Shown piece by piece: positions 10,980 to 64,000 of a stretch of 64,000 bases of DNA. The notes under the pieces were generated by a model. That model ran no database searches, was not told where the DNA came from, and saw only the letters and a program-made list of their open reading frames with translations. The number at the start of each line of letters is the position of its first letter. Positions within the stretch are counted from its first letter, which is position 1. The position numbers and the translations under genes were made by a program. Origin of the DNA: an uncultured Solirubrobacteraceae bacterium. GTDB taxonomy: Bacteria > Actinomycetota > Thermoleophilia > Solirubrobacterales > Solirubrobacteraceae. Where the stretch lies: assembly GCA_963843485.1 (NCBI GenBank), contig CAWJKK010000015.1, positions 213,128 through 277,127 on the forward strand. The letters are read 5' to 3'.

Positions 10980-11006
10980 GGGCCCCGAGGCTACGCTTCG
11001 TGCGCG

Positions 11007-11759: not shown

Positions 11760-11761
11760 CG

Positions 11762-12292
11762 CTACTCGGCGCCCGCGGGGTGCGGAGCCGTCGGGTCCTC
11801 GCTCTCCTCGCCGGCGTGCTCGCGCGCCAGGTAGTTCTCGATCTCCATCGGATCGTCCTTGGAGCGGTCGACCACGCGCAGCAGGTCGGACATCGTCGCG
11901 ACCTCCTCGATCTGCTCCTTGATGAACCACTGCATGAACTGCTCGCTCGCGTAGTCGCCCGCCTCGCGGGCGGCGGCGGCGAGGCCGTTGATCTGCTCGG
12001 TGACCCGCTTCTCCTGCGCGAGCGCGAGCCTGACCGGGGCGACGATGTCCTCGAACCGGGTCTCCGGCGCGGCGACGCCCGGCACGATCACCTCGGCGTC
12101 GGCGTCGACGAGGTACTGGACCATCATCATCGCGTGGTCGCGCTCCTCGAGCGCCTGGCGGTAGAAGAAGCGCGCGAGCTGCGGCAGCGTCTCGGCGTCG
12201 TAGTGCACGGCGGCCGCGACGTACTGCTGGTGGGCGGCGAACTCGTTCCCGATCTGCTCGTTGAGCCGGGTGACGAAGGCTTCGGCTGGCAT
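11762..12292 (-). CDS. ferritin (non-heme, bacterial ferritin family)
   Basis: Intact 176-aa ORF with the ferroxidase-centre pattern NEFAAHQQY...EERDHAMMM...EKRVTEQI...EQIEE. Confidence 0.85.
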   Translation of the reverse strand: MPAEAFVTRLNEQIGNEFAAHQQYVAAAVHYDAETLPQLARFFYRQALEERDHAMMMVQYLVDADAEVIVPGVAAPETRFEDIVAPVRLALAQEKRVTEQINGLAAAAREAGDYASEQFMQWFIKEQIEEVATMSDLLRVVDRSKDDPMEIENYLAREHAGEESEDPTAPHPAGAE

Positions 12293-47494: not shown

Positions 47495-47520
47495 CGCTGC
47501 GCAGACCGTACGCCCGCGCC

Positions 47521-47558
47521 ATGAGACGCACTCTCATGCGCGATGAGAGACCGCTCAT
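47521..47558. promoter_or_regulatory. phased pentamer array, site 1: ATGAG(47521) CTCAT(47533) ATGAG(47543) CTCAT(47554); contains CGATGAG-N6-CTCATCG
   Basis: Read directly. It lies in the divergent region between CotH paralog 1 and the membrane-protein/HK/RR unit. See findings. Confidence 0.5.
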
Positions 47559-47589
47559 CGGTGGCTCTTAGATTTGCCGTCGACCGCAC

Positions 47590-47963
47590 ATGGCCATCCA
47601 GCGCATCCTCCTGGCGCTCGCCGCGATCTCCGCGCTCGCGCTCGTGTTCCTGCTTCCGCGCATCTTCGAGGAGACCGACGAGGCCGGCGTGCCGCCGGTC
47701 GAGCTGCGCGCGGCGCTTCGCGCCCGACCGAGCAGGGCGACCGGCCCGAGCGCACGCGACGCAGGCGCAGCGCCGGCGGGCGGAGCGACGCCGGGCGCCG
47801 AGCGGCGGCCGGCGCGCAGCCGCGACCGCGCGGCCGGCGCCGCGCCGGCCGGCGGCCACGCCCGCGCCGCCGCGCCGCCCGCACCGGCGCCCGCACCCGC
47901 CGCCGCCGCCGCCCGCCGCCGGCCGACGACGACGACGACGATGACGACGACGAGCGGCGATGA
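47590..47963 (+). CDS. small membrane-anchored low-complexity protein (Ala/Pro/Arg-rich, poly-Asp or poly-Thr tail depending on frame)
   Basis: The N-terminal 45 codons (MAIQRILLALAAISALALVFLLPRIFEE...) have a clear TM helix and high GC3. The downstream frame and stop are ambiguous because of the (GAC)n tract at 47925-47975. Confidence 0.4.
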
Positions 47964-49414
47964 CGACGACGACGGGCGACGCCCGACGCTAGCGCTGAGC
48001 TGCGCCGCCTGCTGCGCGGCGCGCGCACGCGGATCCTCGCCGCGTTCGTGATCCTGCTCGCGTTCTCGACCCTGCTGTCGGTGCTGGCGATCCGCGCAGC
48101 TGCTGCTCGTGCGCACCGGCGACCGCGTCGACGCGGCGCTGCACCAGGAGGTCGACGAGTTCCGCCCGCTCGTCGCGCGGCAACGACCCGGCAGACGGGC
48201 GAGCGCCTTCCGCGGCCGCCTCAACCGCATCTTCGACGTCTACTTCGAGCGCAACGTGCCCGGCGGCGGGCGAGACGCTGATCGCGTTCTTCGGCGCGGC
48301 CGCTAGTACTTCGACGAGTCGGGCGCCACGCGGCGGCGCGCATCCCGGAGGACGCCGCCGGCGCGCTGGGCGACGCTGGCCGAGCCCGAGCGCGGCGACA
48401 TCGAGACGCCGATCGGGACCGTCCGCTACCTCGCGGTGCCCGTCGCGCTTCGGCAACGAGGTGCGCGGCGTGTTCGTGGTCGCCGCCTCGCTCGGCTCCG
48501 AGCGCGACGAGGTCGAGGAGGCCGTGCGGCTGGCCGCGCTCGTGCTGGTCTCGGTGCTGCTGATCGCCTCCGCGCTCGCCTGGGTCGTCGCCGGCCGCGT
48601 GCTCGCGCCGCTGCGGCTGCTGGCCGACACCGCGCGCTCGATCGGCGAGAGCGACCTCACGCGCCGCATCCCGGTGACCGGCCAGCGACGAGATCGCCGA
48701 GCTGGCGCACGACGTTCAACGCCATGCTCGACCGGCTCGAGGCCGCGTTCGCGACCCAGCGCGCGTTCGTCAGCGACGCCAGCCACGAGCTGCGCACGCC
48801 GATCACGATCGTCCGCGGCCACCTCGAGCTGCTCGGCGACGACCCGCGACGAGCGGCGCGAGACGATCGCGCTCGTCACCGACGAGCTCGACCGCATGAG
48901 CCGCTTCGTCGACGACCTGCTGCTGCTGGCCAAGGCCGAGCGCGACGACTTCCTGCACGGTCGTCCGAGCTCGAGCTCGGCGCGCTGACCGACGAGCTGT
49001 TCGACAAGGCGGTCGCGCTCGGCCACGCGCGACTGGCGGCTCGAGGCCGCGCGGCGAGGCGCTGCTGGTCGCCGACCGCCAGCGCCTGACGCAGGCGGTC
49101 ATGGGCCTGGCCCAGAACGCCGTGCAGCACACGGCGGACGGCGACCCGATCTGGATCGGCACCGAGGCCGACCACCGCGAGGCGCGCCTGTGGGTGCGCG
49201 ACACCGGGCCCGGCATCGCGCCCGACGACCAGGAGCGGATCTTCGAGCGCTTCGCGCGCGCGAGCGCCAGCCGCCGGCGGTCGGAGGGCGCCGGGCTCGG
49301 CCTGGCGATCGTCCGCGCGATCGCCGAGGCGCACGGCGGCCGCGTGCGGCGCTCTCGAGCCGGCCCGGCGCCGGCGCCACGTTCACCTTGATCATCCCGT
49401 TGGAGGGCATCATG
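47941..49414 (+). CDS. sensor histidine kinase (TM-HAMP-HisKA-HATPase; several frame breaks; both boundaries uncertain)
   Basis: Contains [21 protein letters not shown] (TM1), the HAMP segment [40 protein letters not shown], the H-box [14 protein letters not shown], the N-box AQNAVQHT, G1 [12 protein letters not shown] and G2 GAGLGLAIV. As given, the frame runs into the RR start without a stop. Confidence 0.7.
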
Positions 49415-50079
49415 AGCCGGATCCTGATCGCCGAGGACGAGCCGCGCCTGTCGAGCTTCCTGGAGAAGGGCCTGCGGGCGGCCGGCTACAGCACGACCGT
49501 CGTGCGACGACGGCGTCGCGCGCGGCGACGCTGGCGCGCGACGCCGAGTTCGACCTGCTGATCCTCGACATCGGGCTGCCGGGCCAGGACGGCTTCGCGG
49601 TCCTGCGGACGATCCGCGGCGCGCGGCGAGAAGCTGCCGGTGCTGATCCTGACGGCGCGCGACGAGGTCGTCGACACGGTCACCGGTCTCGACAGCGGCG
49701 CCGACGACTACGTGACCAAGCCGTTCGTGTTCGAGGAGCTGCTGGCCCGGGTGCGCGCGCGACTGCGAGCACCGCGAGGCAGGGCGACTCGGCCCTCGAG
49801 CTGACCGGCGGCGGCGTCCGGCTCGACGTGCGCACGCGCCGCGCCGAGGTCGACGGCGACGAGGTCGAGCTGACCGCGAAGGAGTTCACGCTGCTGGAGA
49901 CGTTCCTGCGCCACCCCGGCCAGGTGCTCAGCCGCGAGCAGCTGCTCTCGCACGTCTGGGGCTACGACTTCGACCCCGGCTCGAACGTCGTCGACGTGTA
50001 CGTCGGCTACCTGCGCCGCAAGCTCGGCTCCGAGCGGTTCGAGACCGTGCGCGGGATGGGCTACCGGCTCAAGCCTTGA
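49412..50079 (+). CDS. OmpR/PhoB-family response regulator (about 3 frame breaks)
   Basis: Contains [34 protein letters not shown] and the winged helix [26 protein letters not shown]...[10 protein letters not shown]...RGMGYRL (ORF 49828..50079). Confidence 0.8.
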
Positions 50080-51398
50080 GCGCGGGCAGCAGCACCTCGA
50101 CCGTGATGCCGCCGTCGGGCCCGGGCGCGACGGAGCAGCGCCCGCCGAGCGACTCCGCGCGCTCCATCAGGCCGACCGGCAGCGGCCGCGCCGCGTCCCC
50201 GTCGTCGGAGATCCGCAGCCGCACGCCGCCGGCGTCGCGCAGCTCGACCGACACGTGGCGCGCGCCGCCGTGGCGCGCGGCCGCCGCGACGGCCTCGCGC
50301 ACGATCCGCGGCAGCGCCTCGCGCCACGGGCCGGGCACGACCGCGTCCGGGTCGATCGCGACGTCGATGCCCGCACCGAAGGCGACCGCCACCTCCTCCG
50401 CGGTGCGGTCCGAGCGTCACGTGGAACGGCTCGTCGACCGGCCGGGCCAGCGCCGAGATCGCGCCGCGCGTCTCGTCGAGCGCGCGCTCGACCGCCGCGC
50501 GGATCTGCACCGCCGCCTCGCCCTCCGGCGGCGAGCGTGTGCATCTGCGTCGAGATCAGCGCCAGCTCCTGGGCGATGCCGTCGTGCGCGTCGCGCGCCA
50601 CGCGCCGGCGCTCCTCGAACACCTCCGCTCCCGCGTAGGCCTCCTGGTAGCGGCCGATCACGGCGATCGTGCCCACGCCCCAGACGATCGCGACCGCCGC
50701 GTGGAAGAGGTCGCCGACGTAGACGAAGTCCGTGAACGCCGACGGCAGCAGCGCGTAGTTGACGTAGGCGGCGGCGGCGACGATCGCGCCCGCGCCGAGC
50801 CACAGCAGGAAGACGTCGGCCTCGCGGTCGGACCGGCGCGCGAACGCGAGCCGGCGGCGAGGAACAGCGCCGCGGTCACCAGCGCGGCCACGATCAGGCC
50901 CGGCGACTGGCTCAGCCGCTGCAGCTCGGCGGCGGTCTCGGGCTGCTCGGAGAACGCCGGCGGCACGTCGGCGAAGGCGGCGACCGCGACGCACAGCGCG
51001 AGGACCGCGACGCAGGCGGCCGCCGTCAGCGCCAGCGCGCGGCCGGGGTCGCGGAGCCGCCGCTCCGGCGCCAGGGCCGCGCCGGCGAGCAGACCGGCGC
51101 CGAGCACGCCCGCGCTCGTCGACACCCAGGTGGTGACGGGCCCCGACGTCTCCGGCAGCACCGCGGTCAGGACCGCCAGCAGCAGGTTCTCGAACGCGAG
51201 CACGACGACGGCCGCGAGCGCGAGCAGGTCGAGCCGCCGCCGCCCGCGCCGCAGGCGGCCGGTCAGCAGGGCCGCCACGAGGATCAGGACGAGCGCGCAC
51301 GCCGTGTCCTTGCCGACGTGCAGGGCACGGCTCGGGTACGCCGGATCGATCGCGTTCAGGAACAGCGTGAGCGCGAGCCCGGCCAGCACGGTGGCCAC
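50069..51398 (-). CDS. membrane sensor histidine kinase, HisKA_3/NarX-LiaS type (frame breaks)
   Basis: The polytopic N-terminus is in ORF 50658..51398. Contains the H-box [19 protein letters not shown] and the HATPase domain [11 protein letters not shown]...RISDDG...[11 protein letters not shown] (ORF 50069..50392). It is a paralog of 53912..55369. Confidence 0.7.
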
Positions 51399-51649
51399 GA
51401 CGAGGAAGCGCGACGGCGTGATCGGCGGAGGCTAGCCCCCAGCGTGCACGCGGTCCATCCTGCCGTCCTCACGACTGGTACCGGTCCACGGAAGTACGTG
51501 CGGTCGCCGGTGGTCGCCGGCGCCGGCTGACGCCGCACGGTGACCGGAAGCGTGCCGGTGGCACATGACCGGGCACCGGGTGGCGTCAGCCGGTGATCGG
51601 CGGCGCCGGAACCGTGCGCACTGCGGGGGCCGGTACTAGGCTAGGCGCG

Positions 51650-51949
51650 ATGCGCGCGTCAGTGCTCGCCGCCGCCGTCCTCTGCGCCGCCGTCCTCGCC
51701 GCCTGCAGCTCCGGTCAGTCGAACGCGGAGCGGACGGCCCGCGGCGCGGACGCGGTGGCGGCCTGCCAGGACCACGGCGGGGTGGCCGCGTTCGACGACG
51801 ACGCGGTGATCTGCGAGGACGGCACGGCGCGTGACGAGCGCGGCGTGGGAGCGGTCGAGGCCTGCCGCGATCGCGACGGCGTGAGCGCGTTCGACGACGA
51901 CATCGTCATCTGCCGCGACGGCTCGTTCCACGAAGCCGCGGGCGGCTAG
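51650..51949 (+). CDS. lipoprotein with two tandem Cys-containing modules of about 29 aa
   Basis: ATG at 51650 lies within ORF 51593..51949. Lipobox VLAAC-SS. The modules are AVAACQDHGGVAAFDDDAVICEDGT and AVEACRDRDGVSAFDDDIVICRDGS. Confidence 0.6.
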   Translation: MRASVLAAAVLCAAVLAACSSGQSNAERTARGADAVAACQDHGGVAAFDDDAVICEDGTARDERGVGAVEACRDRDGVSAFDDDIVICRDGSFHEAAGG

Positions 51950-51952
51950 CGC

Positions 51953-52629
51953 TCAGTCGTCGTCGTCTTCGCCGGCGTCGTCGGCGTCGTCGTCGCCGCC
52001 GTCGTCAGCGTCATCGTCGTCTCGTCGCTCGTCGAGGAGCAGGAGCAGGAGCAGGAGCAGGAGTCGACGGGGCCGGCGCCGGCGGCGGCGCAGCAGCACG
52101 CTCGTCGTCGTCGTCGCCGGCCCCGTCGTCATCGCCGTCCCCGGCTCCCCGATCCCCCTGATCGAAGTCGTCGTCGTCGTCATCGTCGTCGCTGACCACC
52201 GTGTCACGCGTCGGCGTGCCGCCGGTGTCGGGCGCGGGCGCCGGCGCGCTCGTCTCGCGCTCTGCCGGTCAAGCCGCCGCCACCGCTGCTGGCCTGGCGC
52301 CGCGCCGCCCGCTTGCGGGTGCGGGTGCGGCGCACGGCGCGCTCGCGCGCGGCCGTCGCGGCGGCCTCGGCGCGCTCGATGCGCGCGGCCCGGACCGCGG
52401 CTCGGCGCTTGCCGGCGCGCTCGGAGCGCTGCGTGACGGTCTCGCGTACGGCCTCCGCCTCGTTCAGCGTGCGCGGCCCTTCGTCGAGCTGCACGGCCTT
52501 CGTGTCGCCGTCGCGCGTCGCCGCTCCCGTGAGCACGACCGTGAGGGCCGCGACGGCGAAGCAGGCGAGAATCGTCAGTCCGTAACGCTTCACGGGCCAG
52601 AAGATCCCGGTTGCACCTGAGCGATGCAT
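51953..52629 (-). CDS. membrane-anchored low-complexity protein: TM helix, Arg/Ala-rich basic segment, poly-Asp/PAPAP acidic tail (frame and 3' end ambiguous)
   Basis: ORF 52204..52629 starts MHRSGATGIFWPVKRYGLTILACFAVAALTVVLTG, with GGAG 3 nt upstream of the ATG. The tail pieces [13 protein letters not shown]... and PAPAPAPAP lie in the frames of ORFs 52011..52199 and 51953..52654. Confidence 0.4.
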
Positions 52630-52666
52630 GAGCTCCGGGTGAGAAAGCTCTCATCCGCCCTCATCG
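52628..52666. promoter_or_regulatory. phased pentamer array, site 4: ATGAG(52628) GTGAG(52639) CTCAT(52650) CTCAT(52660)CG
   Basis: Read directly. It lies between the acidic-tail membrane protein gene (start 52629, minus strand) and the response regulator gene at 52711. Confidence 0.5.
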
Positions 52667-52710
52667 CGCCTTCACCGTGCTCTCACGCAGCCGCAGCAAG
52701 ATCGCGGCCG

Positions 52711-53128
52711 ATGGTCACGCCCGAGCCGCTCCGCGTCGTGATCGCGGACGACCACCCCATGTATCGCGACGGCCTCGCGCGCGCGCTGCGCGCGAGCGGG
52801 ATCGACGTCGTCGCCGAGGCGGCGAACGGCGAGGCCGCCGTGCAGGCCGTGGCCGCGACGGCAGCCCGACGTCGTCGTGATGGACCTCAGCATGCCCGGC
52901 GTCTCCGGGCTCGAGGCGATCCGCATCGTGGTCGAGCACGCGTCGACCACGCGCGTGCTCGTGCTCAGCGTCTCGGCCGAGGCGCGCGACATCGACGACG
53001 CGATGACGGCCGGCGCCGGCGGCTACGTCCTCAAGGACGAGCCGGTCGAGGACCTGATCGCCGCCGTGCGCGCCACCGCGGTCGGCCACCGGCGGATCTC
53101 GCCGGGCTCGGGGCGCACCGGACCATGA
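52711..53128 (+). CDS. response regulator receiver domain, truncated paralog lacking the LuxR HTH (frame break near 52865)
   Basis: ATG at 52711. Contains LRVVIADDHPMYRDGLARAL, VVVMDLSMPGVSGLEA and GAGGYVLKDEP. It ends shortly after the receiver, where similarity to the downstream copy stops. Confidence 0.6.
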
Positions 53129-53178
53129 CGGCCTGGGCTGGACCGGCGCGGTCGAGTCGGGCAGGATCAGGTTTACAG

Positions 53179-53847
53179 GTGATCGAGCCGACCCCTCAGC
53201 CCGAGCCGCTCCGCGTCGTGCTCGCGGACGACCACCCGTTCTACCGCGACGGCCTCGCGCGCCTGCTCGAGCAGAGCGGGATCGACGTCGTGGCCGCCGT
53301 CGGCAACGGCGAGGCGGCGGTCCGCGCGGTGGCCGAGACGGCCCCGGACGTCGTCGTGATGGACCTCAACATGCCGGGCATGTCCGGGCTCGAGGCGACG
53401 CGGCATCCTCGGCCGGCGCTCGCCCCGCCTCGCGCGTGCTCGTGCTGAGCGTGTCGGCGCAGGCGGAGGACGTGACCGAGGCGGTGCTCGCGGTGCGTGC
53501 GGCTACGTGCTCAAGGAGGCGCCGGTCGAGGAGGTCGTCGCCGGCATCCGCGCCGCCGCCGACGGGCAGTCGCTGATCTCGCCGCGGATCGCGAGCGTGC
53601 TGCTGCGGCGGGTACGCGAGGCGGCCGCCGACGAGGCGACTGACCTGCGCGCCGTGCAGCTGTCACCGCGCGAGCTACGAGGTGCTCGGCCTGCTCGCCG
53701 AGGGCCGTGCCAACCACGAGATCGCCGACCGAGCTGGTGATCAGCCCGAGCACGGTGCACAACCACGTCTCGAGCATCCTGATCAAGCTCCAGGTCGAGA
53801 ACCGCGTGCAGGCCGCGGTGCGGGCCGTGCGCGACGGCCTCGTCTAA
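53179..53847 (+). CDS. NarL/FixJ-family response regulator (receiver plus LuxR-type HTH; about 4 frame breaks)
   Basis: GTG at 53179. Contains LRVVLADDHPFYRDGLARLL, VVVMDLNMPGMSGLEA, GYVLKEAP, LSPRELEVLGLLAEGRANHEIA and LVISPSTVHNHVSSILIKLQVENR. TAA at 53845-53847. Confidence 0.8.
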
Positions 53848-53911
53848 GGTCGTGCCGCGGCGGTTGCGGCGGTCGCCGCCGCGGGTTTAGGCTCGCCTCC
53901 GGGCGCCATCG

Positions 53912-55369
53912 ATGGCGGTCCGGGGGAAAACTCTGACGCGCAACCGGCACGAAAGCAGGGAGCGCCGAGTCACTTCGGCGGACGCGCTGTACGCCGCGTC
54001 GATCGCGGCCAGCGTCTGCCTGGCGCGTCACGCTGATCGTCAACCTCGCGCCGCCGCTCGACCCGTCGATCGGCAGCCGGCGCTTCCACGTCGCGCTCGA
54101 GACCTCCGCGGCGATGGTGCTGATGTTCGTCTCGGCGGTGCTGCTCGGCCGCTTCCGGCTCAACAGCTCGCTGCGCACGCTGCTGAAGTTCACGGCGACG
54201 TTCTCGCTCGCGCTCGAGAACCTCGTCTCGGCGGTGCTGACGATCGCGCTCGACGGCGACGACACGAACTTCGTCGACCTGGGCGACCGCGATCGCCGGG
54301 CTGCTCGGCGCGACGCTGCTGGCGTCGGCGGCGCTGCTACCTGACCGCCACGTCGCGCGCCAGAGCCGCGCGATCGCGATCGCCGTCGGCGCGAGCGTCG
54401 CGGTGCTCGCGCCGCTCGTCGCGCTGACCGCGTTCTTCTCGAGCTCGCTGCCGGGCGCGTTCGACGTGCCCCCGGAGTCGCTGACCGGTCTGCAGCGGCT
54501 CAGCGAGCACCCGGCGCTGATCGTGATCGAGGCGCTGACGGCGACCGGCTTCGGCGTCGCCGCGGTCGCGTTCGCGCGGCTGGCCGCAGGAGCGCGACGA
54601 CGAGTTCCTCAAGTGGCTCGGCGTCGCCTCGTGATCGCCTCGGTCGGCGTTCCTGAACTACGCGCTCTTCCCGTCGCAGTTCACCGAGCTGATCTACAGC
54701 GGCGACCTGTTCTTCATCGCCGCGATGGTCGCGCTCGCGTACGCCGCGGTGCGCGAGATCGCCAACGAGGAGGCGGCGAACATCCGCTCGGCCGTGCTCG
54801 AGGAGCGGCGGCGCGTGGCGCGCGACCTGCACGACGGCGTCGCCCAGGAGCTGGCGTTCATCGCCTCGCAGACGCGCTGGTTCATCCGCCGAGCCGAACG
54901 ACGGCCAGCCGCTCGAGCAGATCATGGACGCGGTCGAGCGCGCGCTCGACGAGTCGCGCGGGGCGATCGCCGCGCTCAGCCGCCCGATCGACGAGCCGCT
55001 CGACCTCGCGCTCGGCCAGGCGGCCCAGGACGTCGCGAACCGGATCGGCGCGCGGCTGCAGCTCGACCTCGACGCCGCGCGTCGAGGTGCCGCCCGACTG
55101 GCGCGACGCGCTGCTGCGGATCGCCCGCGAGGCGGTCGGCAACGCGGTCCGCCACGGCCGCGCGCGCACGGTCAGCCTGCAGCTGCACGAGGCCGACTCG
55201 GTCACGCTGCGCGTCACCGACGACGGCGACGGCTTCGATCCCGACGCACCGCGGTCGACGCTCAGCTACGGTCTGACCAGCATGCGCGAGCGCACCGAGT
55301 CCCTCGGCGGGGAGTTCCGATCTCGTCCGTCGAGGGCGCCGGCACGACGATCGAGGTGGTGCTCCCTGA
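53912..55369 (+). CDS. membrane sensor histidine kinase, HisKA_3 type (frame breaks); paralog of 50069..51398
   Basis: Polytopic N-terminus (MVLMFVSAVLLGRF..., ALENLVSAVLTIAL). Contains the H-box [19 protein letters not shown], plus REAVGNAVRHG, RVTDDGDGF and GLTSMRERTESLGGEF. Confidence 0.7.
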
Positions 55370-56027
55370 TGACGGCGACACGTCCGCGCGTGCTGATCGC
55401 CGACGACCACGCGCCGACGCGGACCGGCGTGCGGATGGCGCTCGAGCGCCGACGGCCTGCGCGGTCTGCGCCGAGGCCGCGAACGCCGGCGAGGCGGTCC
55501 GCGCCGCGGTGCGCCGAGCGCCCGGACGTCTGCCTCGTCGACCTCGGCATGCCGGGCGACGGCCTGCGGGCGGTGGCCGGCATCGCCGCGGCGCTGCCGG
55601 AGACGCCCGGTGCTCGTGCTCACGGTCTCGCGCGTCGGGCGACGACCTGCTCGACTCGCTGCGCGCCGGCGCCGTCCGGCTACCTGCTCAAGGACATGGA
55701 CCCGGCGCAGCTGCGCCGGCTCCGTGCGCGCGACGCTCGAGGGCGAGGCGCCGCTGCCCGGCTTCATGGCCGCGCGCCTGATCGAGGAGTTCCGCTTCCG
55801 CGGCGCCGCACCACAGCATCGTCGTCCAGAACCGCCGGGTCGAGCTGACGCCGCGCGAGTGGGAAGTGCTCGAGCTGCTCAGCGACGGACTGTCGACGGC
55901 CGAGATCGCCGCCCAGCTGGAGCTCTCGCAGGTCACCGTCCGGCGCCACCTGTCGATGCTCGAGCACCGCCTGCAGGTGAGCTCGCGCGAAGAGGCCGTA
56001 CGCCTGTTCTGCGCGCGTCAGTCGTAG
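55369..56027 (+). CDS. NarL/FixJ-family response regulator (frame breaks)
   Basis: ATG at 55369. Contains RVLIADDHAPTRTGVRMAL, CLVDLGMPGDG, GYLLKDMDP, LTPREWEVLELLSDGLSTAEIA and LSQVTVRRHLSML. TAG at 56025-56027. Confidence 0.75.
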
Positions 56028-56302
56028 TCGAGCCGCAGCAGCGCCAGGTCGCGCGGCGCCAGCTCGACCTCGTACTCGCGCCCGCCCTGGCGCGATCGCG
56101 ACCTCCCACTTGCCGTTGTCGCGGTCGCGGCGGACGTCGAGCACGCGCGCCCGGGACGACCTCGAGCGCGGCGGCGACGGCGCGCTGCGCGGCCGGCGTG
56201 GCCGGGTCGACCGGCAGATCGTCCTCCTCGGGCCAGACCAGCAGCACGACGCCGACCACCACGGCGGCGGCGGCGATCAGCGCGACCGAGGCGCCGCTTC
56301 AC
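56018..56302 (-). CDS. small membrane-anchored PepSY domain protein (2-3 frame breaks)
   Basis: GTG at 56302 (GTGA overlap with the kinase stop). VKRR then ASVALIAAAAVVVGVVLLVW (TM), then AAQRAVAAALEVVPGARVLDVRRDRDNGKWEVAI...GREYEVELAPRDLALLRLDYD. Confidence 0.55.
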   Translation of the reverse strand: MKRRLGRADRRRRRGGRRRAAGLARGGRSAGRPGHAGRAARRRRRARGRPGRACSTSAATATTASGRSRSRQGGREYEVELAPRDLALLRLDYD

Positions 56303-57124
56303 GCGGTGAGCGGACGCAGCCGTTCCATCACCTCGTCGAGCGACGGGCGATCGTCGGGCTCGGTCGCCAGGCAGGCGTCGATCGCCTCCGCCAGCGCCGC
56401 CGGCACGCTGCCCGCAGCGGCGGACGGCGCCGGCCCGTCGAGCTGCGGGTAGCCCGCCGCGAGCTGCTCGCCGGTGCTCCAGGTGCGCGGCGTGACCGCG
56501 GCGCCCTCCGCCGTGTCGGACGCGTCGGTCCAGGACTCGTCGTCGTCGAACGCCGGCTCGCCGGTCGCGGCCTCGTAGAGCACGGTGCCGAGGCCCCAGA
56601 CGTCGGCCGCCGGGCCCGAGCTCGTCGCCGCGCGCCTGCTCGGGCGAGAGGTTGCACCAGGTGCCGAGGCCGGCGCGGTAGCGGCCCGGCGCGCGGGCGA
56701 GCGAGAGGTCGATCAGCTTCGCGCGGCCGCCGTCGGCGACCACGTTGGAGGGCTTGACGTCGAGGTGCAGGACGCCGTGGCGGTGCAGGTAGCGCAGCGC
56801 CGAGGCGAGGTGCAGGCCGAGCCAGGCGACGTCCTCGGCGGCCAGCCCGTCCGGGTGGCGGTCGACGAGGTGCGCGAGCGTCTCGCCGTCGAGCGTCTCC
56901 ATCACGACGACGAGCTCGGGCTCGCGCAGCAGCTCGTAGCCGCGGACGATGTGCGGGTGGGTGAGCGCCGTCAGCAGGCGGCCCTCGGCGAGCAGCGCCG
57001 CGCGGGCGCGCTCGTCGTCGCGGCGGTCGGGCCGCAGCGTCTTGGCCACGCACGAGCACGCGCGCTCCTCGCTCCACACCTCGTAGGTGTCCAGCCGGCG
57101 CGTGCGGCTGAGGTGCTCGATCAC
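56299..57124 (-). CDS. short Ser/Thr protein kinase, catalytic domain only (frame break near 56590)
   Basis: Contains VAK (beta3 Lys), LHRHGVLHLDVKPSNVV (catalytic loop), the DLS variant of DFG, SPEQ and DVWGLGTVLYE (ORF 56299..56583). The start is taken as GTG 57124 (GTGA overlap with the ABC stop); ATG 57157 is the alternative. Confidence 0.75.
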
Positions 57125-58946
57125 GAGCCCGGTGCGAGCCGGTGCCGGCCACGGCATGTCGGCGCACTCATGCCGCCGCGATCGCAGCTCGCGCCGCGCG
57201 CCACGCGCCCGTCGCGCAGCACGATCGACCTCGTCGGCCGCCGCGGCCAGCTCGAGGTCGTGCGTGATCAGCAGCGTCGCGCGGTCGCGCATCAGCCGCC
57301 GCAGCGGCGCGACCAGGCGGCGCGAGGTCTCGGCGTCGAGCCCGGCGGACGGCTCGTCGAGCACGAGCACCGGCGCGTCCTGGAGCAGCGCGCGCGCCAT
57401 CGCGACGCGCCGGCGCTGGCCGCCGGAGAGCGCGCGCCCGCGCTGGCCGGTGCGCGTGGCGGAGGCCGTCGGGCAGCTCGTCGGCCGAGCCCGCGGCGGC
57501 GGCCGCGGCGAGCGCGCCGCGGACCTCGCTCGTCGGTCGCCTGCGGCCGCCCGTAGGCGACGTTCTCGCGCACGGTGCCGTCGAACAGCGGCGCGTCCTG
57601 CAGCAGCAGCGCGACGTTGTCGCGCAGCGAGCGCAGCGTCACGTCGCGCACGTCGTGGCCGTCGAGCCGCACGACGCCCTGGTCCGGGTCGGCGAAGCGC
57701 AGCGCGAGCTTGGCGAGCGTCGACTTGCCCGGCGCCGCTCGGCGCCGACGACCGCGACGCAGCGGCCGGGCCGCACGAGCAGGCTGACGCCGGCGAGCGC
57801 CGGGCGCTCGGAGCCGGGGTAGCGTGTAGCTGACCTCGTCGAGCTCGAGCTGGCCGCGCACGCGGTCGAGCGGCCGCGCGTCCGGGCGCTCGCGCACCGC
57901 GCGGCTCGGTGTCGAGCAGCTCGATCACGCGCTCGGCGCCGGCCGTGCGCCTCGAACACCGTCTGGCCGAGCCGCGAGAGGTCGCGCACCGGGCGGTAGA
58001 GCTGCGAGAGGTAGGCGAGGAACGCGAGCAGGCCGCCGATCGTGAGGTCGCCGGCGGTCAGCGCCCAGGTGCCGAGCACGATGATCAGTGATCGCGCCCG
58101 CGAGCTCGATCAGGTCGATGATCGGGGCGAACAGGCCGGCGATGCGGGTGCCGGCCAGCTCGGCGGCCATCGCGCCCTCGTTCTCGCGCCGGAAGCGCTG
58201 CAGCTCGTGCTCCTGCGCGTTGGCCGACTGCACGAGCGCGGCGTTGGCGAGCGCCTCCTCGGCGACCGCGGTCAGCGAGCCGCTGCGGCGGCGGCGCTCG
58301 CGCGCGGCGCGGCGGGCCAGGCGCGCGAAGCGGTGGGCGGCGAAGTAGAAGACCGGGACGACGATCAGCGAGGCGAGCGCGAGCTTCCAGGAGAGCAGGC
58401 ACAGCGCGCCGGCGAAGAACAGCAGCCGCGCGGCGGCCTGCACGACCTCGGCGATCGCCGACAGCAGCAGCGTCTCGATCGCGTGCACGTCGCCGGTGAC
58501 CCGCGCGAGCACGTCGCCGTGGCGGCGGCGGTCGAGCGCGTCGGGCTCGAGCGGCTGCAGGTGCGCGAGCAGCCGCGTGCGCAGGGCGAGCGTGAAGCGC
58601 TCGCCGACCCAGGTGGCGGCGTACTCGTCGCCGAAGGACAGCAGCGCGCCGAGCAGCGCGAGGCCGACCATCACCGGCACGTAGACGGCGAGCGGGCCGA
58701 GCGACTCGGCGACGAGCACGTCGTCGACGATCAGCTTGAAGATCCAGATCTCCGCGGCCTCGACGGCCGGCAGCAGCGCGGCGAGCGCGACGCCGGCGAC
58801 GAACGGCTTGCGGTAGCGTGCGCGCCAGCGGCCAGAAGCGGCGGACGACCTCGCGCAGCGGGACCGTCGGGCGCGGCCGCGACGACCTTGTCGTCGTCGG
58901 GGGCGGGCGCGAGGGAGGTGGCGAGTCGGTCGAGGAGGAGGCGCAT
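57121..58946 (-). CDS. ABC transporter, fused permease/ATPase exporter type (several frame breaks)
   Basis: The TMD is in ORF 57925..58719 (six TM helices). Contains Walker A G.GKSTLAKL, the signature LSGGQRRRVAMARALL, Walker B VLVLDEPSAGLD and the H-loop ITHD. ATG at 58946 is followed by high GC3. Confidence 0.8.
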
Positions 58947-59028
58947 GGGGCGTGCGTGCGATGCGGGGCGGAACGAGGACGGGGCGGCGGAGGCGGGTGG
59001 TCCTCCGCCGCCCCGATGGTGTGGCGGC

Positions 59029-59171
59029 CTAGCTGTTCGAGCTGCGGCTGCGGCGGTTGCGACGGCGACGGCGCCGGCGCCGGCGACGCCGGCCGGAGTT
59101 GTGTCGCTGTTGCTCTTGCTGGCGGAGAGGCGCGCCGCGGCGCTGATGCCCTTGAACGAACGGTGGGCCAT
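59029..59171 (-). CDS. candidate small ORF with strong Shine-Dalgarno (MAHRSFKGISAAARLSASKSNSD...; 3' frame ambiguous, Ala/Val/Gly-rich or poly-Arg reading, likely ending ...SSNS at TAG 59031-59029)
   Basis: AAGGAGG lies 5 nt upstream of ATG 59171. The first 37 or so codons are about 92 percent G/C at third positions. After that the best-coding frame shifts. As written, the frame runs into the ABC start without a stop. Confidence 0.35.
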
Positions 59172-59225
59172 GTCGGCCTCCTTGCGTCGGGGTTTCCCTG
59201 TCGAAGACAAAGATGCCCGCGCGCG

Positions 59226-59273
59226 GTGAGCGATCCGTGAGGCGCCGATGAGAAGACGCTCACCGAGCATGAG
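59226..59273. promoter_or_regulatory. phased pentamer array, site 2: GTGAG(59226) GTGAG(59237) ATGAG(59248) CTCAC(59259) ATGAG(59269)
   Basis: Read directly. 59235-59254 is the exact reverse complement of 63732-63751. The array lies upstream of the small ORF/ABC/kinase/PepSY unit. Confidence 0.5.
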
Positions 59274-59864
59274 CAACGCCAGGCGGCTGTGCGCCCGCGC
59301 CATCAGCCGCACCAGCACGGCCGAGAGGACGGCCAGCGGAGCCGCCAGGAGCATCACGCCGAGCGCCTCGAGCAGCGTGTCGACGTTCAGGACGCCGAAC
59401 TCGACGCCGTCGGGGATCGACCAGTACCAGAGCGGCAGCGTGGCCGCGCCGAGCGTGTAGCCGACGAGCGCGACGGCGACGATGCCGAAGGCCATGCCGA
59501 CCACCGAGTGGGTGATCAGCCAGGCGAGGTCCTTCCACGTCTGCGGGTCGCGGAACGTGCGCGAGAGGCGCATCAGGATCGGGCCGCTGTGGTCGCGGTA
59601 GCGCGCCTTCACCGGAGCGCCGAAGACGAGCGCGGCGTTCTGGCGGTCGAGCTCGACGGTCCAGCGGAACACGATCGCGGTCACCAGCGCGACGGGCAGG
59701 CCGACGATGAAGACGGCCAGCGAGAGGGTGACGCTCACTCCCGTGATCCAGACGGCGAGCGCCAGGATGCTGGTGGCGAGCCCGAACGTGAGGTACAGCG
59801 TGTCGCGCCCGAGCCTGCGGATCCACGCCTGCGGCACCGGGACGTTGAGGGCAGTCGTCGTCAT
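59260..59864 (-). CDS. stand-alone putative-sensor-domain membrane protein (N-terminal module of actinobacterial LiaS-like kinases, no kinase domain); 3' end uncertain
   Basis: ATG at 59864 lies within ORF 58731..59918. Contains RDTLYLTFGLATSILALAVWITGVSVTLSLAVFIVGLPV..., FRDPQTWKDLAWLITHSVVGMAFGIVAVAL and LPLWYWSIP. GC3 collapses after about 59265. Confidence 0.55.
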
Positions 59865-59934
59865 GCCCTCAGGATCGGTTCTGCGGGGCCCGGCCGCCAT
59901 GACGCCGGCAGGCGTCATGGCGGTGGGGAAAACC

Positions 59935-61100
59935 TCAGCGCAACGCTGTGTCCAGCCACGCCGTGCGGCGCGTGAGCCAGTCCTTCAGTGGCGGCGACGG
60001 CCGCCGTCGTGCGAGCCGTGCACGGGCTGGTTGACGGAACAGCGGGCGGTCGAGCACGTCGCCAGCGGGCGAAGTTGCGCCGCGCCGGGCCGCGCAGCTC
60101 GCGCGCGTGGCGGTCGGCGCTCGCCAGCAGCGCCTCGAGGATCCCGTCGGCGCGCAGCTCGCGCCAGCGCGCGCGCGAGCGCGGCCTGGAACGCCGGGTC
60201 GGCCAGCAGCGCGGCTCGCCCACGGGCGGTCCGCCAGCAGCCAGCCGTCGGGCGCCGACATGGCGCGGATCGATCGTGTTGCCGGCGCTGAGGTCGAAGT
60301 CCCAGACCGGGCCGAGGTGCGAGCTTGCCGTCCTCGGGCTGATGCGAGGTACGTGCTCGAGAGGAACGCGTCCTGGTTCTTGAACAGCTCGGCGTGCAGC
60401 ACGTAGTCGACCGCCGACGCCTCGTCGAGGTGCGCGGCGCCAGCCCGGGCCGCCGAGCGCGGCCTCGAACGCCTCGACGCAGGCGCGCGGCCCGCGCTCC
60501 TTCTCGTCGGCCTCGTCGGGCTCGGCGTGGACCACGGTCAGCCCGCTGGCGGACGCGGAACGACTCGTCGTCGGCGTCGAGCCTTGTCGCGGCTCGGTCA
60601 GCTCGAGCAGCGCGTCGCCCTGCACGCGCGGTCGCTAGCTCGGCGGCTCGATCAGCACGTACACGCCGCGGTAGCGGCGGTTGACGCGCAGCTCGACGAA
60701 GCGCGTGCGGCTGCGCCGCGAGCCCGATCCGCCGCGCCGTGCGCGTGCGCGAGCACGTCGCGCAGCAGCGTCGGGTCGGTGTGGAACGCGTTCAGGTCCC
60801 AGTCGTTCTCGCGCGGCATGCCCGAGCAGCCGCACGTCGCTTGTCGGTCTCGATCGCGTACGGCTTCTTGGCGAACGCGCTGCGAGGACTGAGCCGCGCA
60901 GCTCGATGCCGACGCTGGTAGGTGCCGGCTGCCGACCGTTGAGCCGGGCCGGGACCTTCGGGTCGTCGCGGATCTGCTTCTTCGCCGTCGATGCGCGACC
61001 TTCGGGACGTCGGCCGGCAGCCGCCTCGGCGCGTCAGCGCGAGCGCGACCGCGGCGACCGGGGCGGCGCGGAAGTGCCGCGCGCAGCAGCGGCCGCAGGC
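59935..61100 (-). CDS. CotH kinase family protein (paralog 2; many frame breaks; 5' boundary approximate)
   Basis: Pieces: FAKKPYAIETDK, GMPRENDWDLNAFHTDPTLLRDVLAH, TRFVELRVNRRYRGVYVLIEP, ELFKNQDAF, LGPVWDFDLSAGN, RARWRELRADGILEALL and C-terminal LKDWLTRRTAWLD. Confidence 0.65.
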
Positions 61101-61845
61101 GGTTGCTCGCGCACGCCGGGCCGCGTGAAGCGCGACGCCGAGGCAGTACTTCGAGCAGCCGTCGGCCGGGCCGCGCGCCGAGCGCGCGCAGCACGCGGTC
61201 GGCCGACCGCGTTGCCGCGCGGCGACTTGCTCTCGACGATCACGCGCGCCGGCGGCGAGCCGCCCGCGGCGCCGTCGGGCGCGCGGAAGGCGAGGTCGAA
61301 GTCGCACGTCAGCGCGCTCGCCGAGCTCGGGCGCGGCGAGCGTCACGCGCGTGTAGGCGACGGCCAGCGCCGGCCGCAGGCCGCCGCTCGGGCGCGCGCC
61401 CGTAGGCGCGCTCGACGCACTCGCGCAGGAACGCGCAGCGCGGGCTCGGAGAGCGCGTCGCGCGGCTCGCGCGTCGTACGGCCATCCGGTGCTTGACCGT
61501 GCGGCCGCGCGCGCCCCTTGAGCTTGACCTCGAAGGTGCACAGGCCGCTGTCGACGTACTCGCGCGAGCGGCACTTGTAGCGCCGCCGGCGCTGCTGGAC
61601 GTGGTCGCGGAACGCGCGCAGCTCGGCGTGTCGAAGTACGTCGTGCGGTAGCGCGAACGCGCGCCGGCCGTCGATCTCGAGCACCGCGTGGGTGCCGCGC
61701 AGCCGCTCGGCGAGCGCGCGCGAACGGCTCGAGCGGGACGACGTACTTGACGTCCATGCGGTCCTGCAGCGCGGCGGCCGCCTCGAGCTCGGCGAGCCCG
61801 ACGGGCGGGAAGCGACTCAGCGACGAGCGAGGCGACCGGGCGCAT
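61100..61845 (-). CDS. VTC (polyphosphate-polymerase-like) domain protein (many frame breaks; 3' boundary approximate)
   Basis: ATG at 61845. Pieces: LQDRMDVKYVVPLE, LEIDGRRAF, RRRRYKCRSREYVDSGLCTFEVKLKG, AVAYTRVTL, VIVESKSPRG and SKYCLG. Confidence 0.65.
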
Positions 61846-62434
61846 CGAGCGCCTCCTCGGGGACGGCGTCGGCGGGGCGTCGGACGTAGCGCACCTCGGC
61901 GCGCGTGGTCTCGCGCACGTAGTCGATCTCGCGCACGGTCACCTCGAGCACCTGCGCGTTGAGCCGCTCCTCGAGGTGGCGGCGCAGCGCCTCGTCGTCG
62001 GCGAACACGAGCTCGAGCGTCACCTCGAGCCGGCTGCGTCGGCGCGGCTCAGCCGCGGGTGGTCGATCAGCCAGGCGGCGGCGAGCGCGATCGCGGCCAG
62101 CAGCGCCGGCGATAGGCGGCGTCGCCGAGGTCGATCGCGCAGACGAGCGCGAGCACGAGCGCGACGAAGAAGTAGGCCAGCTCGCGGTTGGAGAACGGCT
62201 CGCTGCGCAGCCGCACGATCGAGAGCACGGCGAACAGGCCGAAGCCGACGCCCATGCTCGACCTCGCCGCCGGCGATCACCGACAGCGCGAGGAACAGGC
62301 CGACGTTGAACAGCGCGTAGACGACCGACGAGGTCCATGCGCCGGTGGCGCGGATGGAAGAGGCCGTAGACGAGCACGGCGATCGCCACGACGTCGATGG
62401 CCAGCCGCACGAGGACGTCGCCGAGGTCGATCAT
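61817..62434 (-). CDS. DUF4956 domain membrane protein (frame breaks)
   Basis: ATG at 62434 is preceded by GGGAGGA. Contains MIDLGDVLVRLAIDVVAIAVLVYGLF, MGVGFGLFAVLSIVRLRSEPFSNRELAYFFVALVLAL and the C-terminus LEVTLELVFADDEALRRHLEERL...REIDYVRETT. Confidence 0.7.
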   Translation of the reverse strand: MIDLGDVLVRLAIDVVAIAVLVYGLFHPRHRRMDLVGRLRAVQRRPVPRAVGDRRRRGRAWASASACSPCSRSCGCAASRSPTASWPTSSSRSCSRSSARSTSATPPIAGAAGRDRARRRLADRPPAAEPRRRSRLEVTLELVFADDEALRRHLEERLNAQVLEVTVREIDYVRETTRAEVRYVRRPADAVPEEALDAPGRLARR

Positions 62435-62489
62435 GCCCGATGTCCTCCCCAGCGCGGTGAGTCGTTCGGAGGCGGCGATGAGGAACTTC

Positions 62490-63674
62490 TCACCCGAGTC
62501 GCGGCAGGTTGCCGTCCAGCCAGGCGATCCGGCGGTCGAGCCAGCGCTCGCAGCGCGCGCACGTGGCCGCGTGCGGCTGCCGCGCGGGCGGTCGCCGCCG
62601 GCGGGCCAGCGCGCGGCTGTCGCGCCGGCGGCCGCCGCGCGCAGGCGCGCGCTCGTGCGTTCGCGACCTGCGCAGCAGCCGCGCCGCGCAGGCCGTCGCG
62701 GCGCAGCTCGCGCCAGCGGCGCGCCATCGCGCGGGCGAACGCGCGGTCGCGGTAGAGCGCGCTCGGCCCACGGGCGGTCGGCGAGCATCCAGCCCGTCGA
62801 GCGCGCGCGCTCGGCGCCACGCGGCCGCGCGCCCATCGAGATGTCGAAGTCCCAGATCGGGCCCGAGCCGCAGCCGGCCGCCCGGCGCGCCGGTCATGAA
62901 CGTGCTCGCGCGCATCCCGTCCTGGTTCTTGAACAGCTCGTTGAGCAGCAGGTGGTCGACCGCCGCTGCGCGCGTGCAGGTGGCGCCGCCAGGCGCCGGG
63001 CCGGCCGCGGTAGAGCGCGCGCTCGGCGCGCGCGACGCGGCGCGCGGATCGCGCGCGCCTCGCGGCGCTCGAGAGGTCCTCGCGCTCCGGGTCCTCCCAC
63101 ACGACCGGCAGGCCGCGTGACCGGCGTCCGGAACGACGGGTCCTTGCGCGCGCGCCTGCCGCGCGCGAGGTCAGCTCGAGCAGGAAGCGCGTCGTCGCCG
63201 CCCGCACGCGGTCGTCGTGGAGCTTGAGCTTCTCCATCAGCACGTAGACGCCGTGCGTAGCGGCCGTTGATCGCGAGCTCGACGAAGCGCGTGCGCGCGG
63301 CGTAGCGGCCGATCCAGCGCGCGGTCTCGTAGGCGAGCACGTTGCGCATCAGCGTGCGGTCGTTGTAGGCGGCGTACAGGACCCAGTCGTCGTCGGCCGG
63401 CATCCCGAGCAGCGGCGACGTCGCGGTTCTCGCCCTCGGCGTCGCGCAGCTCGACGGCGTAGGACTTCTTCGGGAAGCGTGCGCGACCAGCTGGCCGCGC
63501 AGCTCGATCGCGACGGCGCCCGTCGAAGCCGGGCGCGCGCAGCGCGCCGGGACGTCCGTCGTCGCCGATGCCGCGCTCGGGCTCGACGTGACGCGCGGCA
63601 GCGCGCGGCGGCGGCGGCGGCGGCGGCAGCGCGAGCGCGACGGCGCGGCGAGGGCGGTCGAGGGCGGAGGGCAT
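62490..63674 (-). CDS. CotH kinase family protein (paralog 3; many frame breaks)
   Basis: ATG at 63674. Pieces: FPKKSYAVELRDAEGE, MPADDDWVLYAAYNDRTLMRNVLAYETARWIGRYAARTRFVEL, VYVLMEKLKLHDDRV, WDFDISMG-type region, AMARRWRELRRDGL and C-terminal ERWLDRRIAWLD. Confidence 0.7.
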
Positions 63675-63711
63675 GCCGATCACGGTCGCGCGCGCGCCGG
63701 TAAGACGGCCC

Positions 63712-63760
63712 GTGAAACGGCGATGAGGACGTTCTCATCGGCGCCTCACGGCCGGCTCAT
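63712..63760. promoter_or_regulatory. phased pentamer array, site 3: GTGAA(63712) ATGAG(63723) CTCAT(63734) CTCAC(63745) CTCAT(63756); contains CGATGAG-N6-CTCATCGG
   Basis: Read directly, with exact 11-bp spacing. It lies between CotH paralog 3 (start 63674, minus strand) and the Ser/Thr kinase gene (start 63785, plus strand). Confidence 0.5.
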
Positions 63761-63784
63761 CGGCCGCCGGCGACGGTGCCTGCC

Positions 63785-64000
63785 ATGAACGCATCGGCAC
63801 TTCCACGCCAGGGCGACGAGATCGCCCCCGGCCTGCGGGCGCGTCCGCCTGCTCGGCGGCGGCCGCCGCTACGAGGCCCACCTCGCGCTCGGCCGACCAC
63901 CTGCGCGCGCTCGTCGTCGTCGAAGGTCCTGCGCCCCGAGCCGGTCGACGACGCCGGCGCGCTCGCCGGCCTGCGCGGCGAGGCGCGCGATGCTGCGACC
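63785..64000 (+). CDS. Ser/Thr protein kinase, N-terminal fragment (continues beyond the window; frame breaks)
   Basis: ATG at 63785. MNASALPRQGDEIAPGLRA..RLLGGGRRYEAHLA..DHLRALVVVKVLRPE..., showing the Gly-loop and beta3 Lys region. It resembles the N-terminus of the kinase at 56299..57124. Confidence 0.55.
   Translation, partial: MNASALPRQGDEIAPGLRARPPARRRPPLRGPPRARPTTCARSSSSKVLRPEPVDDAGALAGLRGEARDAAT

Follow-up and report, generated by a model that had tools for sequence, protein, structure and literature searches.

Response regulators of the OmpR/PhoB family classically bind head-to-tail direct repeats; the box of PhoB stands in for the -35 and leaves a gap of 10 bp to the -10 element. 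The PHO boxes themselves are made of 11-nt direct repeat units, in each of which about 7 bases are conserved and 4 vary, and the number of units differs from operator to operator (PMC4415409, PMC6754071). Mycobacterium tuberculosis PhoP binds 7-bp direct repeats separated by a 4-bp spacer (PMC4832192), and Escherichia coli CusR binds the palindrome TGACAAnnTTGTCA, located between its own operon and a divergent one (PMC11195947). In this work we have analysed arrays of (A/G)TGAG and CTCA(T/C) pentamers, phased at 11 bp, in a stretch of 64,000 nucleotides (the window) from an uncultured Solirubrobacteraceae bacterium (GenBank assembly GCA_963843485.1, contig CAWJKK010000015.1, positions 213,128 to 277,127). 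The arrays lie in an island, at 46 to 64 kb of the window, which carries genes for CotH-type kinases, a VTC-CotH fusion, Ser/Thr kinases and two-component systems. Our results show that these arrays are real, conserved promoter elements, and the comparisons described below indicate that their most likely binder is the OmpR-type response regulator encoded in the island itself.

The first-pass annotation had described such pentamers at four sites, and on rereading the sequence all its positions proved correct. Site 1 (47521–47558) consists of four units, ATGAG 47521, CTCAT 47533, ATGAG 47543 and CTCAT 47554, and is common to two divergent promoters. Site 2 (59226–59273) has GTGAG 59226, GTGAG 59237, ATGAG 59248, CTCAC 59259 and ATGAG 59269; on the minus strand it reads R-F-R-R-R (F, RTGAG; R, CTCAY) and is directed at a small open reading frame (ORF). 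It starts where the sensor-domain gene has its stop codon, and there a homopolymer indel makes the window ORF run through (GGTGAGC in the window, GGGTGAGG in the related locus L002). Site 3 (63700–63760) comprises ATGAG 63723, CTCAT 63734, CTCAC 63745 and CTCAT 63756 and extends leftward through the degenerate units GTGAA 63712 and GTAAG 63700; L002 holds a clean F-F-F-R-R-R version of it. At site 4 (52617–52685) the four pentamers listed earlier (ATGAG 52628, GTGAG 52639, CTCAT 52650 and CTCAT 52660) stand, and the full array has seven units once CTGAG 52617 and TTCAC 52671 are admitted, the last one being CTCAC 52681. These four arrays are given without strand. A fifth array, site 5 (62457–62493, minus strand; GTGAG, CTCAT, CTCCG, CTCAC), lies between the CotH-3 stop codon and the DUF4956 start codon (ATG 62434). 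It had escaped notice because one unit carries a 1-nt deletion, CTCCG being CTCACG in L001 and L083; the site is intact in L001, L002 and L083. Sites 1, 3 and 4 are located between divergent genes, and sites 2 and 5 within operons.

The pentamers are rarer in the 64-kb window than expected (88, against 185 ± 13 in dinucleotide-preserving shuffles), and chains of at least three at 10–12 bp occur only at 47521–47558, 52628–52664, 59226–59273 and 63723–63760. The window contains four chains of at least four pentamers, against none across 300 shuffles, in which chains of at least three averaged 0.02 per shuffle. Two further claims of the annotation were borne out, namely that the arrays are limited to the island, the first 46 kb being without any pentamer pair at 10–12 bp, and that the spacing is one helical turn, since pair distances peak at 11, 22, 32–33, 43 and 54 bp. 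Neighbouring units are 11 bp apart in 45 of 46 direct pairs and in 19 of 21 convergent pairs, the unit consensus is yCTCAYSG, and in most arrays the promoter-proximal run of units is made of direct repeats. Direct reading also agrees with the extended CGATGAG-N6-CTCATCG cores reported at sites 1 and 3, and with the 20-nt identity between sites 3 and 2, where 63732–63751 is the exact reverse complement of 59235–59254.

The arrays adjoin the same genes in nine Thermoleophilia loci (L001–L006 and L083–L085), in which the identity of the VTC-CotH protein ranges from 91% down to 39%. Site 2 is kept in L001, L002, L083, L084, L005 and L207, and site 4 in L001 and L083. In the nine loci, and in L207, the pentamers are kept while the spacers diverge, and the motif is conserved at orthologous promoters. 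By comparison, no chain of at least four units and one chain of three were found in the 1.3 Mb or so covered by 76 loci with CotH homologues of other phyla; in two loci from cultured Solirubrobacter (L209 and L210), reached through a paralogue of the sensor-domain protein, arrays were not found and the OmpR clade was a different one, so that these two did not yield a cultured host of the regulon. One of the nine loci, L085 (VTC-CotH 67% identical), has five arrays in 4 kb (7777–11921), one of them before a gene for a subtilisin-like protease, with a kinase and a receiver-only protein nearby.

The relationship of the arrays to promoters emerged from a scan of public metagenome contigs with the pattern TGAG-N6-CTCAY-N6-CTCAY-N6-CTCAY. 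This gave at least 120 stretches, with 118 unique sites among the matches listed, and all counts given below for metagenome sites and array-selected loci refer to those matches. In the columns that the pattern leaves unspecified, A (74%) and G (69%) are kept after TGAG and T (77%) before the first CTCA; the conserved flanking A and T define a TGAGA-N4-TCTCA core. Beyond the last unit, A occurs at +12 in 90% of the sites and T at +16 in 86%, which places an nANNNT -10 hexamer exactly 10 nt past that unit. The hexamer is weak, its first position being T in just 22% of the sites, and the 118-site matrix has no -35 consensus or TTGACA-like columns. The same register was seen in 22 arrays found through protein homology, a control set free of pattern selection. 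In these, 38 of the 44 ends carry an outward-facing terminal unit, and 17 of the 38 have nANNNT exactly 10 nt beyond it, with 2 more at 11 nt, while the background is 0.016 per position; several further ends have GAGAAC or GACAAC. The fixed distance to the -10 and the lack of a -35 are those of a class II site, in which the box replaces the -35 as the Pho box does. With the -10 at -12/-7, the units fall at about -27/-23, -38/-34, -49/-45 and -60/-56; these positions share one helix face. In the metagenome sites, in the homology-found arrays and in the window, the start codon often lies 6–8 nt past the hexamer, an arrangement consistent with leaderless mRNAs at many of these promoters. The metagenome contigs are nearly all 63–77% G+C. 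Well-formed arrays were also seen on a contig of lower G+C (L122, 54%), and on L138 and L184 (66–71% G+C) the arrays adjoin a more CusR-like response regulator and an HtrA target; the motif may reach beyond the Solirubrobacteraceae.

In the window, -10-like hexamers are found in this register at most of the array promoters. At site 1, TAGATT (47569–47574, plus strand) lies 10 nt past the last unit and is predicted to serve the operon for the small acidic-tail protein, the histidine kinase and the OmpR-type regulator, which starts at ATG 47590. On the minus strand TACGGT (47505–47510), 10 nt past the outermost unit, is predicted for CotH-1, whose ATG 47494 would be near-leaderless. At site 4, GATCTT (52601–52606, minus strand) is 10 nt past CTGAG and is followed 7 nt on by GTG 52593, the putative leaderless start of a 129-aa membrane protein. 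In the other direction, CAAGAT (52696–52701, plus strand) is 10 nt past CTCAC 52681, and ATG 52710, 8 nt on, opens an operon for a receiver-only response regulator, a NarL-type regulator, a HisKA_3 kinase and a second NarL-type regulator. The site 2 hexamer CATCTT (59210–59215, minus strand), also 10 nt past the last unit, precedes a leader of about 30 nt with AAGGAGG and ATG 59171. The two hexamers at site 3 are slightly displaced: GACGGT (63772–63777, plus strand) is 11 nt past the last unit and 7 nt before ATG 63785, the start of a putatively leaderless Ser/Thr kinase gene that runs off the window, and GACCGT (63682–63687, minus strand) is 12 nt past the degenerate GTAAG 63700 and 7 nt before ATG 63674 of CotH-3. 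At site 5 there is in addition a CTCAC-N11-CAGGTT sequence (62489–62510, plus strand) running antisense into the 3' end of CotH-3, which may be an antisense promoter or a chance occurrence.

Which protein binds the arrays? The annotation had suggested, as a possibility, one of four local response regulators, encoded at 49412, 52711, 53179 and 55369. Our computational results support a single local regulator and point to the OmpR-type protein at 49412, not to the NarL-type proteins at the other three positions. When the array-selected set (120 loci, 527 kb, most of them 1–5 kb long) was searched by tblastn, an OmpR-family regulator was found in 30 loci, 26 of them at 50% identity or more to the island regulator, and its cognate histidine kinase was also present in 30; the control loci had 6 OmpR-type matches in about 1.3 Mb. 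In several array-selected loci the regulator stop codon abuts the array. The window regulator is 67–68% identical to the array-linked regulators, and they have a 16-residue recognition-helix region in common. Within the clade, identity is 83–100% over more than 120 protein clusters (P0241–P0360). In the same lineages, the neighbouring VTC-CotH and sensor proteins reach only about 60–67% identity, and this difference indicates an unusually strong constraint on the regulator. The association also holds in the reciprocal direction, since each of three loci fetched through the response regulator alone (L206–L208) has an array within 2 kb. In L207, as in L001, an F-R-F-R array like that of site 1 lies exactly between CotH and the operon for the small protein, the histidine kinase and the response regulator, and this compact island has two more arrays. 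In L208 a double array is located 600 bp downstream of the regulator gene, and in L206 an array precedes an operon whose last gene is the regulator.

Proteins of this clade have the domains of the OmpR/PhoB family (PF00072 and PF00486), and a kinase of HAMP-HisKA-HATPase architecture is encoded directly upstream; the units repeat at about one helical turn (10–11 bp), as expected for operators of this family. The regulator does not pass any curated NCBIfam equivalog, its best model being the heavy-metal subfamily TIGR01387 (223 bits, cut-off 279.2). The closest solved structures are PrrA (176 bits, E 6e-51), M. tuberculosis PhoP and BasR. For PhoP and PrrA this is a family-level match only; the repeat sequences differ, and orthology is unsupported.

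Compared with the described systems, the arrays combine features of several. They resemble the PHO boxes of E. coli PhoB and of Streptomyces and Microlunatus PhoP/PolR in their 11-nt units and varying unit number, in the 10-bp gap to the -10 with replacement of the -35, and in having an OmpR-family regulator that autoregulates its own operon, if the predicted binder is the right one. They differ from them in the unit itself, which is CTCAY and not CTGTCAT or GTTCACC, and in the presence of inverted units, usually as a distal or central palindrome. The nearest precedent for mixed orientation is the copper box of CusR, CopR and PcoR, TGACAAnnTTGTCA, which has the same 5-4-5 spacing; a single base in each half-site separates the array core TGAGA-N4-TCTCA from TGACA-N4-TGTCA and, at sites 1, 3 and 4, such a core is likewise located between divergent operons. 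Unlike the copper box, the arrays extend as 11-bp direct repeats to 4–8 units, and they serve a large regulon rather than a single locus; neither the subfamily model score nor the targets place the regulator in the CusR/CopR/CzcR group, no efflux genes for copper or other metals and no oxidase genes having been found among the array-downstream genes listed. The targets do include multihaem cytochromes and secreted proteins rich in His or Asp, which are only suggestive of a link with metals. The SARP regulators (AfsR, ActII-ORF4 and DnrI) bind heptameric repeats at 11-bp spacing that overlap the -35; some 8 bp separate the last of them from the -10. The arrays are alike in these repeats, their spacing and the -35 overlap; SARPs differ in that they have a BTAD domain and not phosphorylation-dependent receivers, whereas the array-linked protein has a receiver and a Trans_reg_C domain and is accompanied by a cognate kinase.

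We propose that an autoregulated OmpR/PhoB-type two-component activator fills the 11-bp-phased units at the island promoters, a reading that we consider probable. It is favoured by the non-randomness of the arrays, their conservation, the register with the -10, the 11-bp spacing, the linkage with the regulator, the reciprocal test and the known precedents. Each array would be a row of recognition units for one winged-helix protein, in the island the product of 49412–50073 paired with the kinase encoded at about 48009–49408. The promoter-proximal unit points to the gene and ends 10 nt before the weak nANNNT hexamer, and the units would replace the -35. Divergent gene pairs use a single array with its halves facing outward (F-R-F-R, FF-RR or FFF-RRR), and many arrays have the TGAGA-N4-TCTCA palindrome, with the geometry of a CusR box, at their centre. 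Once phosphorylated, the regulator would fill the units on one helix face and recruit RNA polymerase to mostly leaderless promoters. At site 1 it would thereby switch on its own operon. Its further predicted targets are CotH-1, CotH-3, the DUF4956/VTC-CotH/sensor genes, the peptide/ABC exporter/kinase/PepSY operon, the second Ser/Thr kinase, the membrane protein and the NarL-type two-component cascade. The arrays, their conservation, the register with the -10 and the start codon, the orientation rule and the linkage to the regulator clade were computed directly; from them we infer binding by the OmpR-type protein and activation rather than repression.

Several observations weigh against this proposal. 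Unit orientations are mixed (FRFR, FFRR, FRRR, FFFRRR) and not head-to-tail throughout, so F-R-F-R arrays and inverted distal units require a flexible orientation of the protomers or a second binding mode. Some array ends have no recognisable -10, and that of site 5 is poor (AGGACA). The metagenome sites were collected with an exact four-unit pattern, and only the unspecified columns of their matrix are independent evidence. In L085 no OmpR-type response regulator was found within 10 kb despite the five arrays; the linkage is thus frequent, not obligatory. Finally, the units cover -23 to -60, and a protein bound there could also repress. Repression would mean that the same regulator sits on the arrays and occludes the -35 region of constitutive promoters until a signal arrives; actinobacterial promoters often need only a -10 box. 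Members of the family are known to do both; for CutR, activation or repression depends on the position of the site (PMC12802291). We consider a repressor possible but unlikely, since the box ends 10 nt from the -10 as in a class II activator, the weakness of the hexamer fits dependence on an activator, and a fixed orientation of the proximal unit matters for contact with the polymerase and not for simple occlusion; this fixed orientation and the weak -10 together favour activation.

The other explanations concern the identity of the binder, or the nature of the arrays. NarL-type proteins recognise short heptamers in mixed orientations, and directly downstream of site 4 the island encodes three receiver proteins (52711, 53179 and 55369), of which two have GerE domains, so that one of them could bind the arrays while the OmpR-type protein would be a co-regulated target only. 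This is very improbable in our opinion: NarL/GerE-type regulators occur in 2 of the 120 array-selected loci against 30 for the OmpR clade, no such regulator was found in the compact island of L207 or in L085, both with full array sets, and direct repeats in an 11-bp register whose end lies 10 nt from the -10 are a signature of the OmpR/PhoB proteins and not of the NarL ones. The absence of the regulator from the vicinity of the L085 arrays would be explained by an unlinked protein, either a global factor or a CRP/FNR-like dimer on TGAGA-N4-TCTCA accompanied by another protein on the direct repeats. The core does have the 5-4-5 spacing of an FNR box, and among the 118 sites the distal palindrome is better kept than the proximal units. 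All units, however, share one consensus and one 11-bp register, the position of the palindrome varies (proximal at site 1, central at site 4) and does not mark a separate fixed site, and the arrays show a strong and specific linkage with the OmpR clade and its kinase; we therefore regard an unlinked regulator as quite unlikely. That the arrays are PHO boxes, with the island (VTC, CotH and a histidine phosphatase) belonging to the Pho regulon, seems extremely unlikely in spite of the similar units and box geometry, the single TTCAC unit, as in GTTCAC, and the polyphosphate-type genes. This reading was rejected on motif (the consensus is CTCAY, not GTTCAC or CTGTCAT), on targets, as neither pst or pho genes (such as pstSCAB and phoU) nor phosphatase or phosphatase-uptake genes were found among the 95 array-downstream ORFs listed, and on the regulator score (196.7 bits against a cut-off of 296.2 for the PhoB equivalog TIGR02154). 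Short inverted repeats could also form 5-bp hairpins, and sites 2 and 5 would be transcribed by read-through within their operons, as in an RNA element, a dispersed repeat or a mobile-element remnant. Such an origin is scarcely credible and was rejected: conservation is limited to the 5–7-nt units and does not include the spacers, the arrays lie upstream of -10 boxes and leaderless starts, so that most would not be transcribed, and a phase of 11 bp is characteristic of the DNA helix.

The genes next to the arrays had to be mapped with care. The window (75% G+C) looks like an unpolished, error-prone long-read metagenome assembly: 1-nt indels are found throughout (for example at 59259–59275, 62467–62471 and 49412–50073), at least one of them in a G run, at the sensor-gene stop, nearly every gene is frameshifted, and the third-position G+C plot shifts frame every few hundred bases. 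Two public contigs are 92–97% identical to the window, which shows 326 gaps in 12.4 kb against a 92%-identical contig. By its sensor-domain protein (PF13796) and its VTC-CotH fusion the window belongs to the Solirubrobacteraceae (Thermoleophilia, Actinomycetota). Since such indels make the ORF lists of the window untrustworthy, genes were mapped by tblastn from the clean relatives L207, L083 and L002, and this confirmed the earlier gene assignments next to the arrays. CotH-1 (46370–47494, minus strand, frameshifted) was located with the L207 and L083 CotH proteins, the Pfam CotH domain being present on the homologues. On the other side of site 1 follow, on the plus strand, a small membrane or secreted protein (47590–48051, with a 3' end uncertain because of frameshifts; its acidic-tail L207 homologue has 99 aa and ends in DDDDDGDDD), the histidine kinase (48009–49408; two transmembrane segments, an extracytoplasmic loop of about 140 aa, and HAMP-HisKA-HATPase, by tblastn and Pfam on L207 and L208) and the OmpR-family candidate binder (49412–50073; receiver and Trans_reg_C, frameshifted), and then a HisKA_3 kinase on the minus strand. 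Genes for a 99-aa protein and the 129-aa membrane protein (minus strand) precede site 4 and the NarL-type operon described above (plus strand). The operon downstream of site 2 (56021–59171, minus strand; tblastn, and Pfam on L083 and L207) encodes a small peptide, an ABC exporter (57227–58940), a Ser/Thr kinase (56302–57170) and a PepSY-like protein (56021–56300). The peptide that heads it, rich in Ser, Asn and Arg (59171 to about 59022), begins MAHRSF.GISAAARLS and has a homologue of 49 aa in L207 (13708–13857); it may be an exported or modified peptide. Beyond site 2, also on the minus strand (59262–62434), lie the sensor-domain gene (PF13796, 59262–59918), the VTC-CotH fusion (59950–61840) and DUF4956 (61832–62434), followed by site 5, CotH-3 (62493–63674, minus strand), site 3 and the second Ser/Thr kinase (plus strand).

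The annotation had also proposed that the arrays co-regulate the whole island. The shared arrays support this, and the regulon is wider than was claimed, the members seen most often across metagenomes being the two-component system itself, a Hanks kinase and small secreted proteins of acidic character. Among the 95 ORFs examined downstream of metagenome arrays, a large group consists of small proteins that have a signal peptide, a KR[ED]DD box and tails rich in Asp, Ser, Gly and His, without a Pfam match (loci L086–L205). Further groups are Hanks kinases, APH-like phosphotransferases, HtrA/PDZ proteases, NapC/NirT multihaem cytochromes, CWB2 proteins, DUF4956, CotH and OmpR-type regulators. 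The HtrA-type target pointed to the secretion-stress regulators CutR and CssR, which were rejected because the CutR motif is TAWATAAA. Two acidic-tail small proteins lie under arrays in the window, the first gene of the kinase–regulator operon (47590–48051) and 52200–52593. The commonest enzyme adjoining arrays is a Hanks Ser/Thr kinase without extra domains, usually leaderless (in the window, 63785–64000 and 56302–57170). A kinase of this domain-only type is present in 26 of the 120 array-selected loci, and leaderless kinases homologous to the one at site 3 are found downstream of arrays in at least nine metagenome loci; it may act on the two-component system or on secreted targets. CotH and DUF4956, present in 2 and 4 of the 120 loci, respectively, show that the CotH/VTC genes are a minor, lineage-specific part of the regulon.

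Our literature search found no description of the array motif, the regulator clade or the regulon, and no account of how the CotH, VTC and DUF4956 gene cluster is regulated. Two-component regulators with phased operator units are a well-known kind of system; this member of it is new, and it defines a previously undescribed regulon in soil Solirubrobacter-like actinobacteria, comprising CotH, VTC/DUF4956, Ser/Thr kinases, an ABC exporter and acidic secreted proteins. Speculatively, the two-component system might switch on a coordinated system of extracytoplasmic phosphorylation and polyanions, an idea that we regard as doubtful and that derives from the co-regulation and the composition of the targets, and from nothing else. 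Secreted CotH kinases, which we take to be atypical kinases comparable to Fam20C, would act in it together with a polyphosphate module of VTC and DUF4956. Dozens of signal-peptide proteins, whose disordered tails are rich in Ser, Asp and His, would belong to it as kinase substrates or cation binders. If true, this would be a bacterial counterpart of the secretory-pathway phosphorylation of acidic matrix proteins, and in soil Thermoleophilia it would serve to buffer cations, interact with minerals or protect the envelope.

What do the arrays mean for these bacteria? Hardly any experimental genetics exists for the Thermoleophilia, a group of actinobacteria abundant in soil. They now gain a precise promoter architecture (a unit consensus, an 11-bp register, a 10-nt gap and putative leaderless starts), together with a candidate regulator and a first regulon. 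The mixed-orientation arrays are also a natural series on how OmpR-family proteins would use inverted versus direct units at divergent promoters. Furthermore, CotH kinases, VTC/DUF4956 and kinase-domain-only Hanks kinases, whose roles are obscure outside spore formers, would be brought under one signal with a large set of unannotated acidic secreted proteins.

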